In this document: piece by piece, positions 1,337-6,104 of the stretch
Layout: the number at the start of each line of letters is the position of its first letter
Numbering within the stretch: position 1 is the stretch's first letter
IMG/VR virus record: IMGVR_UViG_2565956711_000002
Span: 1-7,551 of that record
Source: a virus
Lineage: Monodnaviria > Loebvirae > Hofneiviricota > Faserviricetes > Tubulavirales > Inoviridae
Length of the DNA: 7,551 nt
Reading direction: 5' to 3' (one strand)
Notes under the pieces: model-generated
What the model was told of the DNA's origin: nothing
Databases searched by the model: none
What the model saw: the letters and a program-made list of their open reading frames with translations, nothing else
Program-made: the position numbers and the translations under genes

Positions 1337-3220
1337 TCACGCAGTCAGAATGATACGCAGCGAAATAATGCCCCAGATAAGCAGGAATACCGCTTTCAGA
1401 AGTGGCCTGATTTTTTCCAGAAGCTCGCAGTGAGAATCAATGGAATATTTATTGTCCCAGAGTTCGAACGACCATACCGGACACTGAACATCCTTCGATG
1501 AAATACTCAGGTTTTTAATGTCCGGCATTAATTCTGTAATTGGCTTGAGAATTTCCTCACCTGTAGGCGGTTTTTCAAGTTCCGGCGATTTAATGCCGGG
1601 GTCTTCGCCTAAATCAACAGAAGTATCGGTATCTGTGCCTGTACCAGGGTGTACACCTGTATCCGTTCCCGCACCGGGTCTGGCATTAACCCACGACTGA
1701 GGAACGACAACCGGACTATAAAGCAAGCCCTTATCAAGTTTTACGCCAACAGCATTAGCCGCAGCCGTCAGTTCAGCCGCCGTAAAAGGTTTATCAAGCG
1801 GTATCCCCTGATATCCTTCCTGAACAACAGTCTGACCTGCAAGGCCATTAATAAGATTAACCAGCGCAGCCGGGTTTAACTGTTCCTCCGGCTTGAAATC
1901 TATATTATCAATAACCTCGCCATTAATTACCTGAGGTAAATTTGATGTATCAAATTCTGTATTAAAAAATATCTGGTCTTTAACATCCTGAACATCATTC
2001 GTCGTTTTATACACGGCCTTCTCAGGGTGGCAAATACTTTTCCACTGCGTTTTGGGATTATCAGCCGTACTGCCCGGCGCAGGTACTTTCTCGCTTTTAC
2101 ATAAATCCCATGAGTTTTCAAGCGTAACCGTTGTTGTTCCAACAGATAAAACCACAGTTACAATCGATGAATATCCACCAAAATAAGGATTCGGCTTTTC
2201 ATACTGAAAGTCTTTAACGGAAACCGAATAAACCTTAAAATTTCTTGGCATCCTGATATGTAAGTTATTGTCGTCAGACGCCTCATGATAAGTCACATTG
2301 GAATGAGAATAACCATTAATCGACTTATAAAGCGCAATCATTACCGGATTATCACTGACAAGTACAGCATCGCCCTTTGCATCCCTGATATCAGTCGAAT
2401 AAGGATATTTAGTACCCTTAACTGACACACGATATACATCATTCGGTAATGGCTGGCTTATCGGCGGTGGTGCATCAATATTGTAATAGGTTGGCGCAAT
2501 CTGAACAGGTTTAACCTGATGATTATAAGGGCTTATCGAGTCCTGAATATTCTTCGCAGAAAAGCCAGTAGCATCAGAGGGCAAATAAACAGCAACAGGG
2601 CTTTTAGGTGAAGGTGCAACAGAAGAAGTAACAGTAGCGCCATTGGACAAATTAAGTAAATAAGTTCCATCATCCTGTTTTATTCCACTTGTAATATATT
2701 CAACAGCTTTTGCGCCCTGCTTTAAAGCAAGGTCAGCAACGGAAATAACACCCGCAGCCTGCCCCAGCAATCCCCATGTTGTCTGTCCGGCAGCCATCAT
2801 ATTACTGCCAAAACTTGAAATACCCGTGGATATCGAATCGTCAATTGTATGCTTCGCAAGGCCATAAGCAGCCGCGAAAACTGACGTTCCGGTGCAAAGC
2901 TGAGGATTACCCACTTTCTCGCCACACATGCGGATTGAATCAAAAACGTCAGGACGTTCGCGTATAACCTCCGCAGCGACAGCGATACCCGCGCCCATAC
3001 CGAGAGAACTGGCACCCGTTGCGAATACACGCCCCGCAGATTGAGAAACAACCTGAGCTTCACGGGTTTCAACCATTTGCTGAATTACACGTCCAAATCC
3101 GTCTGCTGTTACTGCATCAGCATGTACACCGGATGAAACCAGTAAAGACAATATAGTAATACCTAACTTTCCAGACCCTGAATGACCGCCCAGGCGCATA
3201 AAAGCCCCCATAAAAAACAC
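1337..3220 (-). CDS. pIII-like adsorption / minor coat protein (large, 627 aa by longest ORF)
   Basis: N-terminal signal-peptide-like segment (hydrophobic core ITILSLLVSSGVHA). A Gly/Thr/Asp-rich linker (PGAGTDTGVHPGTGTDTDTS). C-terminal SID motif plus hydrophobic anchor (YSIDSHCELLEKIRPLLKAVFLLIWGIISL), comparable to the Ff pIII C-terminus (YEFSIDCDKINLFRGVFAFLLYV). Start is ambiguous: in-frame GTG at 3218-3220, ATG at 3209-3211, and ATG at 3197-3199 (the last preceded by a GGGGG run). Confidence 0.7.
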   Translation of the reverse strand: MFFMGAFMRLGGHSGSGKLGITILSLLVSSGVHADAVTADGFGRVIQQMVETREAQVVSQSAGRVFATGASSLGMGAGIAVAAEVIRERPDVFDSIRMCGEKVGNPQLCTGTSVFAAAYGLAKHTIDDSISTGISSFGSNMMAAGQTTWGLLGQAAGVISVADLALKQGAKAVEYITSGIKQDDGTYLLNLSNGATVTSSVAPSPKSPVAVYLPSDATGFSAKNIQDSISPYNHQVKPVQIAPTYYNIDAPPPISQPLPNDVYRVSVKGTKYPYSTDIRDAKGDAVLVSDNPVMIALYKSINGYSHSNVTYHEASDDNNLHIRMPRNFKVYSVSVKDFQYEKPNPYFGGYSSIVTVVLSVGTTTVTLENSWDLCKSEKVPAPGSTADNPKTQWKSICHPEKAVYKTTNDVQDVKDQIFFNTEFDTSNLPQVINGEVIDNIDFKPEEQLNPAALVNLINGLAGQTVVQEGYQGIPLDKPFTAAELTAAANAVGVKLDKGLLYSPVVVPQSWVNARPGAGTDTGVHPGTGTDTDTSVDLGEDPGIKSPELEKPPTGEEILKPITELMPDIKNLSISSKDVQCPVWSFELWDNKYSIDSHCELLEKIRPLLKAVFLLIWGIISLRIILTA

Positions 3221-3284: not shown

Positions 3285-3533
3285 TTAAGCGCCACGAACC
3301 ATACGCAAAATCCAGCGGACACCCGCAGAACCTGCATACAGAACAATAAGAGAACCCGCTACCGCCATAATTCCGGTCAGAACGGAACCGAAATTAACGC
3401 TGTTAGTCAGTGGCGTAAGGTCAATACCTTTACCACCAACAACATCACCTTCAGCAGCAAATACGGCAGGTGCAGCAACTGCCAGAGTAAAAGCACCAAT
3501 ACGGGTTAAAGCCTGTTTAGTCTTAACAAACAT
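3285..3533 (-). CDS. Major coat protein pVIII
   Basis: 82 aa. Signal peptide ending AVFA followed by AEGD (Ff pVIII has FAAEGDD at its cleavage site). Mature part has an acidic N-terminus, a hydrophobic span (VLTGIMAVAGSLIVLYAGSAGV) and a basic C-terminus (RWILRMVRGA). AAGGAG Shine-Dalgarno 6 nt upstream of the ATG at 3531-3533. Confidence 0.88.
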   Translation of the reverse strand: MFVKTKQALTRIGAFTLAVAAPAVFAAEGDVVGGKGIDLTPLTNSVNFGSVLTGIMAVAGSLIVLYAGSAGVRWILRMVRGA

Positions 3534-3831: not shown

Positions 3832-4122
3832 TCATTCTAATAATTCAAGCAGCATATCAACGTTATACCCTTTAGACTGCTCACCTGTTTGCTTATCAGT
3901 GTATGGGAAACTCCGTTCATAACCAGTAATGCGGCAATGTACATCGGTAATTTCATCACCAATACGGCCTAGTGATTTCTTTGATTTAATACGAATGACA
4001 GGCGGAAAGCTATAAGCATCAGCCGCAGGAGAAACAATTGTTGTATAATAAAAACCGCCACTATTATTAAAACGTTTAATCTTTCCGGTAACAGTAGTTT
4101 CTAAATTAAGTAAATTACTCAT
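3832..4122 (-). CDS. ssDNA-binding protein, SSB/PriB-like OB-fold (functional analog of gV)
   Basis: 96 aa, immediately downstream of rep (16-nt gap) with an AAGGTG Shine-Dalgarno. Motif pattern recalls bacterial SSB: VTGKIKRF..NSGGFYYTTI against SSB LVGNLGQ..NGGAVANITLAT, and ITGYERSFPYTDKQTGEQ against SSB IEGQLRTRKWTDQSGQ. Assignment is by position plus this motif resemblance. Confidence 0.6.
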   Translation of the reverse strand: MSNLLNLETTVTGKIKRFNNSGGFYYTTIVSPAADAYSFPPVIRIKSKKSLGRIGDEITDVHCRITGYERSFPYTDKQTGEQSKGYNVDMLLELLE

Positions 4123-4138
4123 AATAACACCTTATATT

Positions 4139-5254
4139 CTATGCAACTCGTAAATGAGACGGTTTTACATACCACGATGGAATAACACAATCAGACACTT
4201 TAATCTCTCGCGTTTGCTTGACAACAACAGGAGAGAATTTCGAAACATTACATTTTTGCGCAATGTCAATACCAATCTTGCGGAGTCTTGCCCGATGAAT
4301 ACGCACTTGATTTTTACTTAAATCAAAAATATGACCATGAAACCATTGGATCGCGTACATAGCTGTAGTATTAGCTGCCCGTGTAGTTTCAACTATTCCA
4401 CGGGTAATAAGATGTTCACTAATAGTTTCAAAATCCATAGCATTCACCGATAACTTTTCATCAAGCGCCAGAAAATCAGAATGTAACTTATTTAACACAG
4501 AATAATCAGATAACCCCCAAAAACCTAGAGAGTGTTTTTGAATAAAACGAGACTTCAATTTTTGTTCAAATCTGACTATTCCATTTTCCTTACAATAATC
4601 AATCACACTAACAATATAATTAAACTCTTTTGACTGCTCAGAGAATTTATTTTTTATTTTTAATAAACTATGTAACTCAATCTCATGTGACTTATTATAT
4701 ACAGTCGGATAAATAAGATTAACATTCCCTTTTTTAGACAACCAGTCAACAGATTTACCGTTTGAATGCAACCGTGGTACACTATTCCTATAGGGTTGAG
4801 TCGAAAGCCCTGAAATATAATCATCCTCATTCCCTTTGCCAACAGATTTATTAGATGTTATGTGAAGCTCTTTAATTAACGCCCCATCACTGACCATATG
4901 AGCTTTTTCGGTTTCTTTAGACTGACCGGGCATTAAACGAGTGCATTTTGTAAAAAAAGGCAATTTAAGATCAAGAAGGATCTTATTGAAAACCATAACG
5001 CAAGCATCAACGGTAGGTAAGCCAAATAAATTATCAAGCCGCCCCCACCGCGAAGGGTTGCCCGTCATTTTTAGAACAGATCCACGGATAGAAATAGAAA
5101 CGACATCACAGAAAGATCCCCGGTGCTGAAAAGTTGGCTGAGAAAGCGCACTAACCTCACCACTTTCAAGATGAATACGCTGGTAAGCAACATCCGAGAG
5201 AATAGGAAGTTGAAAGCCGAAATCCTGTTCAATACTTAACCAGTCGAAGAACAT
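4139..5254 (-). CDS. Rolling-circle replication initiation protein, filamentous-phage gII (CRI) family
   Basis: 371 aa. Segment GIVRFEQKLKSRFIQKHSLGF resembles Ff pII GLVRFEARIKTRYLKSFGLP. First gene of the minus-strand operon, with a strong promoter-like element upstream. Gene is visibly AT-rich. Confidence 0.85.
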   Translation of the reverse strand: MFFDWLSIEQDFGFQLPILSDVAYQRIHLESGEVSALSQPTFQHRGSFCDVVSISIRGSVLKMTGNPSRWGRLDNLFGLPTVDACVMVFNKILLDLKLPFFTKCTRLMPGQSKETEKAHMVSDGALIKELHITSNKSVGKGNEDDYISGLSTQPYRNSVPRLHSNGKSVDWLSKKGNVNLIYPTVYNKSHEIELHSLLKIKNKFSEQSKEFNYIVSVIDYCKENGIVRFEQKLKSRFIQKHSLGFWGLSDYSVLNKLHSDFLALDEKLSVNAMDFETISEHLITRGIVETTRAANTTAMYAIQWFHGHIFDLSKNQVRIHRARLRKIGIDIAQKCNVSKFSPVVVKQTREIKVSDCVIPSWYVKPSHLRVA

Positions 5255-5295
5255 AGCGCCCTTTCTTAGATTCTCAGAAATTATTTCATGGTGCT

Positions 5296-5324
5296 TTTAT
5301 AAGACCTGAGAAACTAAGTGTCAA
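5296..5324 (-). promoter_or_regulatory. Putative sigma70 promoter for rep
   Basis: On the minus strand: -35 TTGACA (plus coordinates 5319-5324), 17-nt spacer, -10 TATAAA (plus coordinates 5296-5301). Predicted transcription start is roughly 35 nt upstream of the rep ATG at 5254. Confidence 0.45.
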
Positions 5325-5350
5325 CATTTCTAAGAATTTAGAGATATGAT
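5322..5350 (+). promoter_or_regulatory. Putative divergent promoter for the 62-aa ORF; its -35 overlaps the rep -35
   Basis: -35 TCAACA (5322-5327), 17-nt spacer, -10 TATGAT (5345-5350). GAGG Shine-Dalgarno at 5367-5370, ATG at 5378. The 10-mer ACATTTCTAA (5325-5334) overlaps the -35 and spacer. Confidence 0.35.
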
Positions 5351-5377
5351 GCAAGGCTAGCAGAATGAGGAAAGAGC

Positions 5378-5566
5378 ATGCCTACAAAGCACATAAACGA
5401 TGTTCAATGGCGAAAAATAGAGAAAGAAACCGTTAGAGCGGTATCAACCCTAGCTGTTCCAGTTAAAGATACCAAAATGCTCGAATGGATAATCGCCAAA
5501 GGGCTAGAGACGATCACAGAAGACGACTACCGCAAGTTCCTGAAGACAGAAAGCAAAAAAAAATAA
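5378..5566 (+). CDS. Hypothetical small protein (62 aa), candidate phage regulator
   Basis: Good Shine-Dalgarno (GAGG, 7-nt spacing) and ATG. Transcribed divergently from rep, the position taken by repressors in lysogenic filamentous phages. Charged protein with a lysine-rich C-terminus; no recognisable motif. Confidence 0.5.
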   Translation: MPTKHINDVQWRKIEKETVRAVSTLAVPVKDTKMLEWIIAKGLETITEDDYRKFLKTESKKK

Positions 5567-5581
5567 GCGAGCAGGAAGAAA

Positions 5582-5636
5582 ATACGGGAAACCGTACTAA
5601 AGTTCGGGTGTCACAGAACCCCGAACCGCTTCGCGG
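5582..5636. other. Cluster of three short GC-rich stem-loops between the two small ORFs
   Basis: TACGG-GAAA-CCGTA (5583-5596); GTTCGGG-11 nt-CCCGAAC (5602-5626); CCGC-TTC-GCGG (5626-5636). No U-run follows on either strand, so this is not a classic intrinsic terminator. Confidence 0.3.
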
Positions 5637-5758
5637 CGAAAAAACGAACAACAGCAGAGCTTGCGAAATCGGAATTAAGATAAGCTGGACGTCAAACGAT
5701 TAAACAAAAATACGCCATTATGCAAAGATCAAATGACACACTCTAAAAGGTATAGGTA

Positions 5759-6025
5759 ATGAACAAAGACCAGATAATACAGGTACTTAATGAAACAGAG
5801 AATGACAGCCCCGTAGCAAGAGCAGAATTAGCAAGATTCCTCGTAAAAACAATCTACAATTTTGTAAAAATGGAGAGGCCAGAAGGTGAAGGTCTGGACG
5901 GACGTGATGGCCCAGAAAGGCGCAGCATGGGAAAAATTGTAGATGCGGCAGAAAACCACTACTTTAACATGATAAAAGAAAGCCATGAAAAACAGGGAAT
6001 TGGAAGAAGAAACCCTGAGGAATGA
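5759..6025 (+). CDS. Hypothetical acidic protein (88 aa), accessory gene next to the att site
   Basis: ATG at 5759 with AAAGG about 8 nt upstream; stop TGA at 6023-6025, 6 nt before the dif-like site. Highly charged, soluble-looking composition; no family recognised. Confidence 0.45.
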   Translation: MNKDQIIQVLNETENDSPVARAELARFLVKTIYNFVKMERPEGEGLDGRDGPERRSMGKIVDAAENHYFNMIKESHEKQGIGRRNPEE

Positions 6026-6031
6026 CGCCCT

Positions 6032-6058
6032 AATGCGCATAATGACGTTATGCTAAAG
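6032..6058 (+). other. dif-like XerC/XerD recombination site (prophage att junction)
   Basis: AATGCGCATAA-TGACG-TTATGCTAAAG compared with E. coli dif GGTGCGCATAA-TGTATA-TTATGTTAAAT (recalled): each arm matches at 9 of 11 positions, with a divergent, apparently 5-nt, central region. Located next to hipA, where chromosomal dif lies in E. coli K-12 (recalled). Confidence 0.7.
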
Positions 6059-6059
6059 A

Positions 6060-6096
6060 GGCAGCTGCGGGGAGAAATTCTCGCAGCTGCCTTTTT
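6060..6096 (+). terminator. Intrinsic terminator (10-bp GC-rich stem plus T5)
   Basis: GGCAGCTGCG (6060-6069) pairs with CGCAGCTGCC (6082-6091) around a 12-nt loop, followed by TTTTT (6092-6096). Lies downstream of the 88-aa ORF but on the far side of the dif-like site. Confidence 0.6.
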
Positions 6097-6104
6097 GACA
6101 TATG

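Follow-up and report, generated by a model that had tools for sequence, protein, structure and literature searches.

The presence of a dif-like sequence between the genes of a filamentous phage and the chromosomal hipA gene raises the question of where, and by what means, the phage entered the bacterial chromosome. In the 7,551-nucleotide stretch of DNA analyzed here (the window), such a sequence occupies positions 6032-6058, and a sequence-only reading had taken it for the signature of integration by host XerCD, in the manner of CTXphi. Comparison of the window with related lysogens supports Xer-type integration at dif, but places the crossover elsewhere than 6032-6058.

On the + strand, window positions 6032-6058 read AATGCGCATAA-TGACG-TTATGCTAAAG, a site of 27 bp. 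AATGCGCATAA agrees with the XerC arm of dif (GGTGCGCATAA) at 9 of 11 positions, and the same degree of agreement is observed between TTATGCTAAAG and the XerD arm (TTATGTTAAAT), confirming the resemblance originally noted at these positions. When 300 dinucleotide shuffles of the window were searched for sites with at least 18 of 22 arm matches and a spacer of 5-8, a mean of 0.007 sites per shuffled window was obtained; the dif-like match at 6032-6058 lies far above this level and is therefore not attributable to chance. It was also the sole site found when the window was scanned for dif-like sites. While the arms are thus of dif type, the architecture is not: the spacer measures 5 nt (TGACG) as opposed to the 6 of dif, such that the 11-6-11 arrangement is absent, and the full 28-bp dif pattern has no match anywhere in the window when up to three mismatches are allowed.

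The sequence-only reading had further placed the site at the position near hipA that dif occupies in K-12, and this proposal does not survive alignment. In K-12-like genomes dif directly abuts AATATAAACCAAGG (corresponding to the window from 6153 onward, and also given as AATATAAACC), which puts the K-12-type dif at window-equivalent positions 6125-6152, 76 nt from the hipA stop. Chromosomal identity in the window begins only at about 6150-6153, 94 bp to the right of the 6032-6058 site, and the two sites differ in orientation as well: the XerC arm of K-12 dif faces hipA, whereas in the window it is the XerD-like arm that does so, and the site is inverted. Alignment to the empty site, suggested earlier as a means of defining the junction, did yield the position of dif, but showed that the insertion boundary is not at 6032-6058. 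Neither arm of the site is contiguous with chromosomal sequence, the 94 bp on its right being the end of a transporter IS. Moreover, the site is not the only dif at the terminus, as a perfect 28-bp dif is located at 16799-16826 of the contig designated L011, at the opposite end of a two-copy phage array; this is the second dif that had been anticipated beyond the left edge of the window. With an intact dif elsewhere and no junction between the site and the chromosome, the outcome that the earlier reading had itself named as contrary to its claim, 6032-6058 can no longer be regarded as the integration junction. A decayed chromosomal dif was likewise considered and is ruled out by spacer, orientation, position, and the perfect dif elsewhere.

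The greater part of the window consists of inovirus prophage, which extends past the left window edge. Encoded on the - strand are a Zot/pI-like assembly protein (1-1035; 344 aa in the list of open reading frames, with PF05707 Zot detected in the identical L011 gene), a DUF2523 minor virion protein (1039-1326; 95 aa; PF10734; phrog_974 'minor head protein', E 6e-28), a pIII-like adsorption protein (1337-3199; 620 aa as called in L011, from a start downstream of that of the 627-aa open reading frame; phrog_3942, E 5e-194), a major coat protein (3285-3533; 82 aa; phrog_2186 virion structural protein, labeled 'major capsid protein' in PEC148), a single-strand DNA-binding protein (3832-4122; 96 aa; phrog_8473, E 5e-42), and a rolling-circle replication initiator (4139-5254; 371 aa; PF05155 G2P_X_C; phrog_702 replication protein, E 1.5e-104), whose region displays 74% nucleotide identity to phage If1. 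The center of the pIII-like gene (1588-3075) has no match in the PEC148 phage, which is otherwise 95-96% identical; this mosaicism between relatives suggests that a receptor-binding domain may have been swapped. Divergent from rep, on the + strand, is a 62-aa ORF (5378-5566; phrog_5219, unknown function) that is conserved in all phage copies and that, judged by position only, may sit where CTX has its rstR-like regulator.

Beyond this ORF, a conserved double hairpin (5586-5636) represents a candidate replication origin and forms the left edge of the variable cargo; it spans approximately 51 nt (GGGAAACCGTACTAAAGTTCGGGTGTCACAGAACCCCGAACCGCTTCGCGG), and its core is found exactly in 24 inovirus-sized IMG/VR contigs. 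The cargo slot, which ranges from 405 to 1465 nt in length and ends at the short-spacer dif-like site, holds other genes in related phages, and in the window contains an 88-aa accessory ORF of unknown function (5759-6025, +; phrog_37184). Just upstream of the 88-aa ORF, at 5699-5728 on the - strand, is a weak dif-like match (TCTTTGCATAA TGGCGTAT TTTTGTTTAAT, 16/22) that is inverted with respect to the main site, restricted to cargo of this ORF88 type, and of a frequency expected by chance. A pdif-like second site flanking the cargo was looked for and rejected, this chance-level match being the only candidate found. An Rfam scan of positions 5200-6300 returned only sub-threshold chance matches.

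The nature of the 6032-6058 site becomes apparent from intact copies of the phage. The window is 100% identical to parts of two independent records, L011 and L015, the former of which holds two tandem copies of a 7669-bp (7.67-kb) inovirus, the second copy being that of the window. This unit comprises genes for Rep, SSB, coat proteins, Zot, and secretin together with small ORFs, and it encodes no recombinase, in keeping with the earlier observation that the phage has no integrase. At the junction between phage copies in L011, the short-spacer site is followed by a 32-nt GC-rich stem-loop and then by TTTCAACATAA CGAGTCACACA TTATGCGCACC, an inverted second dif-like site composed of a perfect XerC arm, an 11-nt spacer starting TGT, and a XerD arm matching at 9 of 11 positions. 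This long-spacer half (GGTGCGCATAA-10-11 nt-TTATGTTGAAA) thus lies in inverted orientation about 35 nt from the short-spacer half. Both halves are present in all intact copies (L002, L008-L014, and L096), as well as in two unrelated inoviruses at the LD39-1 locus and in approximately 20 inovirus-sized IMG/VR contigs. Across these copies and contigs the spacers are conserved, at 5 nt in one half and 10-11 nt in the other, and the central bases of the long-spacer half invariably begin TGT, like the dif center TGTATA. Variants of the XerC arm and of the long-half center are reshuffled among phages. The viral (coding) strand of L011:9125-9228 folds to -33.3 kcal/mol (z -8.9; 0 of 200 shuffles as good), and the predicted fold is a forked hairpin in which like arms pair (XerC with XerC, XerD with XerD) and the center stays unpaired. 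Of this fold the window retains the inner stem alone; of the long half, neither the XerC arm nor the central region is present in it. The sequence of the 6032-6058 site, for its part, recurs at the phage-phage junctions of tandem copies. On sequence grounds, then, 6032-6058 is the phage-internal short-spacer half of a bipartite, CTX-type attP, and not a phage-chromosome junction.

Where integration takes place is indicated by the products found in lysogens. In L011, the window's own contig, phage DNA follows immediately on a perfect dif (ATTTAACATAATATACATTATGCGCACC), and the same is seen in PEC148 and NCTC9040; hipA-proximal hybrid junctions are present in PEC148, L010/L013/L014, NCTC9040, and LD39-1. 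Prophages accordingly have a rebuilt dif at one end and a hybrid that is not dif at the opposite end, and tandem copies occur. On the hipA side of ordinary lysogens the short half is followed by the stem and the long half, and the XerC arm of the latter continues into the chromosome, so that the normal chromosome junction is located 35-70 bp to the right of the short-spacer half, within the inverted long-spacer half. Alignment would place the crossover within the 14 nt (GGTGCGCATAATGT) common to dif and the long-spacer half, and no more narrowly. The proximal XerC arm of L008 and L012 has A as its first base, against G in the internal and distal arms, a pattern that fits an exchange to the right of that base; the hipA-proximal XerC arm of LD39-1 starts with A and not with the E. 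coli G, which the simple model does not predict.

The perfect dif-phage fusions and the hybrid junctions lend support, by analogy with CTXphi, to the view that a filamentous phage has here made use of host XerCD at dif. [quoted passage not shown] The expected outcome would be a perfect dif at the far prophage end and a dead hybrid beside hipA. The short-spacer half would supply only the complementary strand of the hairpin, and would never serve as the crossover point.

Sequence to the right of the short-spacer half has a different source. Window positions 6034-7551 are 100% identical to E. coli MB50, and, with the same 100% identity, positions 6034-6152 correspond to the right end of a 2761-bp transporter IS. 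The MB50 element (L006 7367-10127) adjoins dif and possesses inverted repeats and AATAT duplications, the order being dif, AATAT, left inverted repeat, a gene for a 465-aa ISNCY-type transposase, Shedu, TGTGCGCATAA TGACG TTATGCTAAAG, a stem-loop, TTTTTGACATA, right inverted repeat, AATAT, and hipA. Complete copies in MB50, pCO_Eco4457-1, and NCTC9040 have terminal inverted repeats, a 5-bp duplication, and a dif-proximal left end, and are situated 5 bp from the XerC arm. Since inverted-repeat ends, target duplication, and dif-adjacent insertion are as in the ISAba32 subgroup, window 6103-6152 (+), which is 100% identical to MB50 and an inverted repeat of the IS left end, is assigned as the right terminal repeat of an IS1202-family transporter IS. 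It contains two 17-nt direct repeats (GACATTTCTAAYGAGCC), and the rest of the IS is absent.

Between the dif-like half and this repeat lies, at 6060-6091 (+), a GC-rich stem-loop (10-bp stem, 12-nt loop) with T5 behind it; it differs from the phage allele and represents the attP hairpin tip in its IS-type form, the same as in the MB50 and NCTC9040 IS copies. The stem-loop may also terminate the cargo gene. Its classification as a simple intrinsic terminator was rejected, a terminator scan having made no call because the 12-nt loop exceeds 8 nt. Adjacent to it, TTTTTGACATA (6092-6102, +) is, by an alignment made by eye with phage TTTTCAACATAA-CGAGTCACACA-TTATGCGCACC, a vestige of the long half, being homologous to its XerD-like arm. 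On the far side of the right repeat, AATAT (6153-6157), which in K-12 directly follows dif, is the surviving copy of the 5-bp target-site duplication, and is followed by chromosomal hipA (6229-7551, -; 440 aa; 99.9-100% identity to K-12-type genomes).

The transporter IS is common. Of 5426 complete E. coli genomes, approximately 920 match its right end, both on chromosomes, where it adjoins dif, and on plasmids, where it adjoins plasmid dif-like sites; the plasmid pCO_Eco4457-1 carries the same element beside a plasmid dif-like site with an AAGTC duplication, further element copies occur in L005, L007, and L096, and a variant exists in which SIR2 takes the place of Shedu. The 465-aa protein is labeled by RefSeq as an ISNCY family transposase, and displays HTH domains and a sub-threshold rve match. 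Relatives of this transposase are found in many genera, 5 bp from the XerC arm of dif-like sites, and include an element of 2278 bp, the published length of ISKpn21. The internal dif-like site is present in the E. coli elements and in relatives from Buttiauxella, Cedecea, and Phytobacter, the Phytobacter element keeping it despite transposase and Shedu identities of 71% and 77%, respectively. ISKpn21 proper and a Scandinavium element are without it and in Pseudenterobacter it has decayed, cases which rule it out as a universal trait of the IS clade. In one copy (L003, E. coli M21170, 10790-12000), ISApl1 is situated inside the SIR2 passenger and splits the gene.

How phage and IS came to be joined is suggested by E. 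coli NCTC9040, which contains a 99.6%-identical phage, an identical IS, and an identical HipA. [quoted passage not shown] An ungapped comparison reveals that taking 2739 bp out of this order gives the window. The window sequence agrees with the phage up to and including 6062 and with the IS from 6034 onward, such that the switch falls within the 29 nt (6034-6062) that are identical between the phage half-site and its IS-borne copy. In the window, then, 6032-6058 is a recombinant joint with phage sequence on the left and transporter-IS sequence on the right, and it is highly probable that a 2739-bp deletion fused the short-spacer attP half to the end of the dif-targeting IS. As reconstructed from this one related strain, the phage would have integrated at a dif that already held the 2761-bp IS, with its transposase and Shedu, 5 bp from the XerC arm. 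[quoted passage not shown] The fusion joint is known from two independent assemblies, L011 and L015, and is a lineage-specific rearrangement. Because a complete attP is kept at the junction of the tandem copies, the array can presumably still make normal phage by the rolling-circle route.

The agent of the deletion would most likely have been homology-driven, either RecA-dependent exchange or replication slippage on the 29 identical nt, a route favored because a spacer of 5 nt is shorter than those with which Xer core sites are known to work and because separate double-stranded halves are reportedly no substrates. A possible but doubtful alternative is that XerCD itself made the 2739-bp deletion, with the pair of 27-bp direct repeats as its substrates; these lie within the FtsK-activated region about dif. 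XerC- and XerD-like arms occur in each of the two partners, as does the identical TGACG spacer, and three different left partners (phage ORF88, Shedu cargo, and SIR2 cargo) diverge exactly in the outer XerC arm and share everything rightward; the reshuffling of XerC-arm and long-half central variants among phages described above points in the same direction. This pattern of shared and unshared sequence is, however, equally expected from homologous exchange, and as the XerC and XerD cleavage positions both fall inside the 29-nt interval, the sequence cannot decide between agents. Known Xer core sites have central regions of 6-8 bp, which sets them against the 5-nt spacer seen here. Separate double-stranded halves of the CTX site, moreover, are stated not to be Xer substrates (PMC4246890). 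The order of events may also be reversed, with a replicative form recombining through its short-spacer half with the IS-borne copy, in a VGJ-like manner, and an exchange between dif and the long half then removing the IS body. Such a course would use existing sequence pairs at both steps and produce the same final structure; it is nonetheless unlikely, given that NCTC9040 represents the other intermediate, in which the phage is at dif and the IS intact to its right, and that a search of 5426 E. coli genomes turned up none in which the phage lies inside the IS. Direct CTX-type integration into the IS-borne site was considered separately and rejected: it would put the phage genes on the other strand, and the joint would then show a GGTGCGCATAA arm with pIV-side phage sequence in front of it.

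Two further explanations concern the reality of the joint and the identity of the site. A mis-join through the 29-nt repeat in a genome resembling NCTC9040 deserves mention because the joint does lie in a repeat and because L011, a metagenome scaffold, keeps apart two near-identical copies of 7.7 kb, a demanding task for short reads. The identical 7551-bp sequence is present, however, in an independent isolate assembly (GCA_000488015.1, the L015 record), whose scaffold breaks at the phage repeat, as expected, yet runs cleanly through the joint, and 9 further similar places with the same neighborhood are on record, all of which make an assembly artifact very improbable. Least credible is the interpretation of 6032-6058 as a hybrid attL or attR that was produced by XerCD recombination and marks the exact insertion boundary. 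The agreement of both arms with dif and the location between phage genes and hipA speak for it. Against these stand the 94 bp of IS-derived, non-chromosomal DNA that precede the chromosome, the occurrence of the same site at internal junctions between tandem copies, which identifies it as phage-borne, its inverted orientation and 5-nt spacer, and the existence of the real hybrid in other lysogens and of a rebuilt dif at the far end of the array; comparison with the empty site and with the NCTC9040 intermediate refutes it.

Phage and IS share more sequence than the dif-like half. The double hairpin of the window phage is found in the major intergenic region of If1, next to a homologous rep gene, and is partly conserved in Alteromonas phage phiAFP1; its first stem displays compensatory changes. 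The same double hairpin is located within the transporter IS, just after the transposase gene, and in the Shedu variant of the IS it appears again, 5 nt before the IS-borne site. The passenger content of the IS is thus arrayed in phage order: origin-like hairpin, cargo, short half, stem, and the XerD-like arm of the long half, after which comes the right repeat. It may tentatively be proposed, as a minority reading of these data, that the passenger region of this common dif-targeting IS is a captured inovirus module. Since the module is shared and both types of element accumulate at dif, it would act as a portable recombination platform. None of the simple insertion models tried explains how the IS acquired the inovirus-like module, neither Shedu nor SIR2 was found within the sampled inoviruses, and no paper was found that links IS1202-family elements to filamentous phages or to Shedu. 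Were the proposal correct, inoviruses and IS copies on chromosomes and plasmids could swap cargo, here the anti-phage genes Shedu and SIR2; the module could yield deletions and fusions such as that of the window; and in a lysogen, phage Rep or XerCD might mobilize parts of the IS.

Several known systems resemble the one described here. The attP(+) of CTX-phi of V. cholerae consists of inverted dif-like sites with spacers of 12 bp and 5-7 bp that form a (+)-strand forked hairpin (PMC4246890). The present phage is alike in having two inverted sites of non-canonical spacer (10-11 and 5 nt) and a predicted (+)-strand forked hairpin, in rebuilding dif on one side and leaving a dead hybrid on the other, and in its tandem arrays, lack of an integrase, and accessory slot beside attP; 6032-6058 corresponds to the short-spacer CTX 'attP2'. 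The likeness is one of architecture: the host is another, and the halves are separated by about 35 nt as opposed to about 90 bp. Ypf-phi of Yersinia pestis and CUS-1 of E. coli O18:K1:H7 are listed as CTX-type (PMC4246890) and, by description, are similar as enterobacterial inoviruses at dif, where they form 2-4 tandem copies; an attachment anatomy of the CTX-phi kind has been proposed for both. As a close relative of the window phage occurs in only 3 of 5426 E. coli genomes, the window phage is not CUS-1 itself, and a fusion to an IS is not described for either of the two.

The UP-phi901 group comprises inoviruses of approximately 7.5 kb, tandem at dif, in E. coli, Citrobacter, Salmonella, Klebsiella, and Yersinia, with reverse-orientation accessory ORFs beside dif and a repeat boundary that matches only the first ~15 nt of dif (PMC7307601, Shapiro & Putonti 2020). 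As far as can be judged from that description, the ~15-nt boundary fits the GGTGCGCATAATGT of the long-spacer half. Structural genes of the UP-phi phages are IKe/I2-2-like, whereas the window has no match to IKe/I2-2 and matches only If1, over the rep region; furthermore, the phage site is there described as 'a copy of dif', and a second, short-spacer half is not described (PMC7307601). Among insertion sequences, the ISAba32 subgroup of the IS1202 family (ISKpn21/ISAjo2-type) targets dif or plasmid dif-like sites, inserting at a distance of 5 bp from the XerC arm, left end proximal and with a 5-bp duplication, and some members, such as ISKpn21, carry a passenger gene. The transporter IS differs from ISKpn21 proper (L034/L036, 2278 bp), to which its transposase is approximately 72% identical, in having the internal dif-like site, and from the ISKpn21/ISAjo2 type in that its passenger region is inovirus-like. 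Similarity also exists to the pdif modules of Acinetobacter, in which genes are bounded by XerC/XerD-type sites that are likewise targets of IS1202-family elements; these modules, however, have two complete 28-bp sites in inverse orientation, whereas the cargo described here is flanked by an origin-like hairpin at one end and by only one 27-bp half-site at the opposite end.

CTX-type IMEX, dif-targeting insertion sequences of the IS1202 family, and XerCD integration of enterobacterial inoviruses at dif are thus all of kinds already known, and the integration finding, as originally stated, is another example of an established process that adds little. The unexpected point is that the transporter IS carries what could, with considerable reservation, be an inovirus-derived module. 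Two classes of dif-homing element interact at this locus, and one of them, the IS, has matches in ~17% of the complete E. coli genomes, as well as on numerous plasmids, and carries defense genes within an inovirus-like module. Such an IS can recombine with resident prophages, in the process erasing its own transposase and the attachment scar of the phage, which bears on the movement of defense genes and on the stability of the region around dif. For annotation of this phage group, a dif-like 27-mer with a 5-nt spacer is to be treated as a passive attP half, and the junction sought at the inverted half starting GGTGCGCATAATGT.

The surroundings of dif in the genomes compared hold additional features. 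Beyond the rebuilt dif, on the side away from hipA, one to three tyrosine-recombinase genes stand in a row (L011 16970-21116, L004 10772-14776, and L096 6179-7579); they are absent in K-12 and appear to belong to another island abutting dif. A recurrent dif-like match of 17/22 (GATGCGAATAA, 9 nt, TTATGTTGACA) at L002 14971-15001, found also in L003, L006, L007, L015, L096, and L122, lies inside the ECSE_1600 autotransporter gene downstream of hipB, and is probably coincidental coding sequence. In E. coli LD39-1 (L122 1-12400), two different inoviruses of the same bipartite attP design are arranged in tandem at dif/hipA, and their cargo, which differs between them, comprises a DUF2971 protein, a HigA-like antitoxin, and a 364-aa protein.
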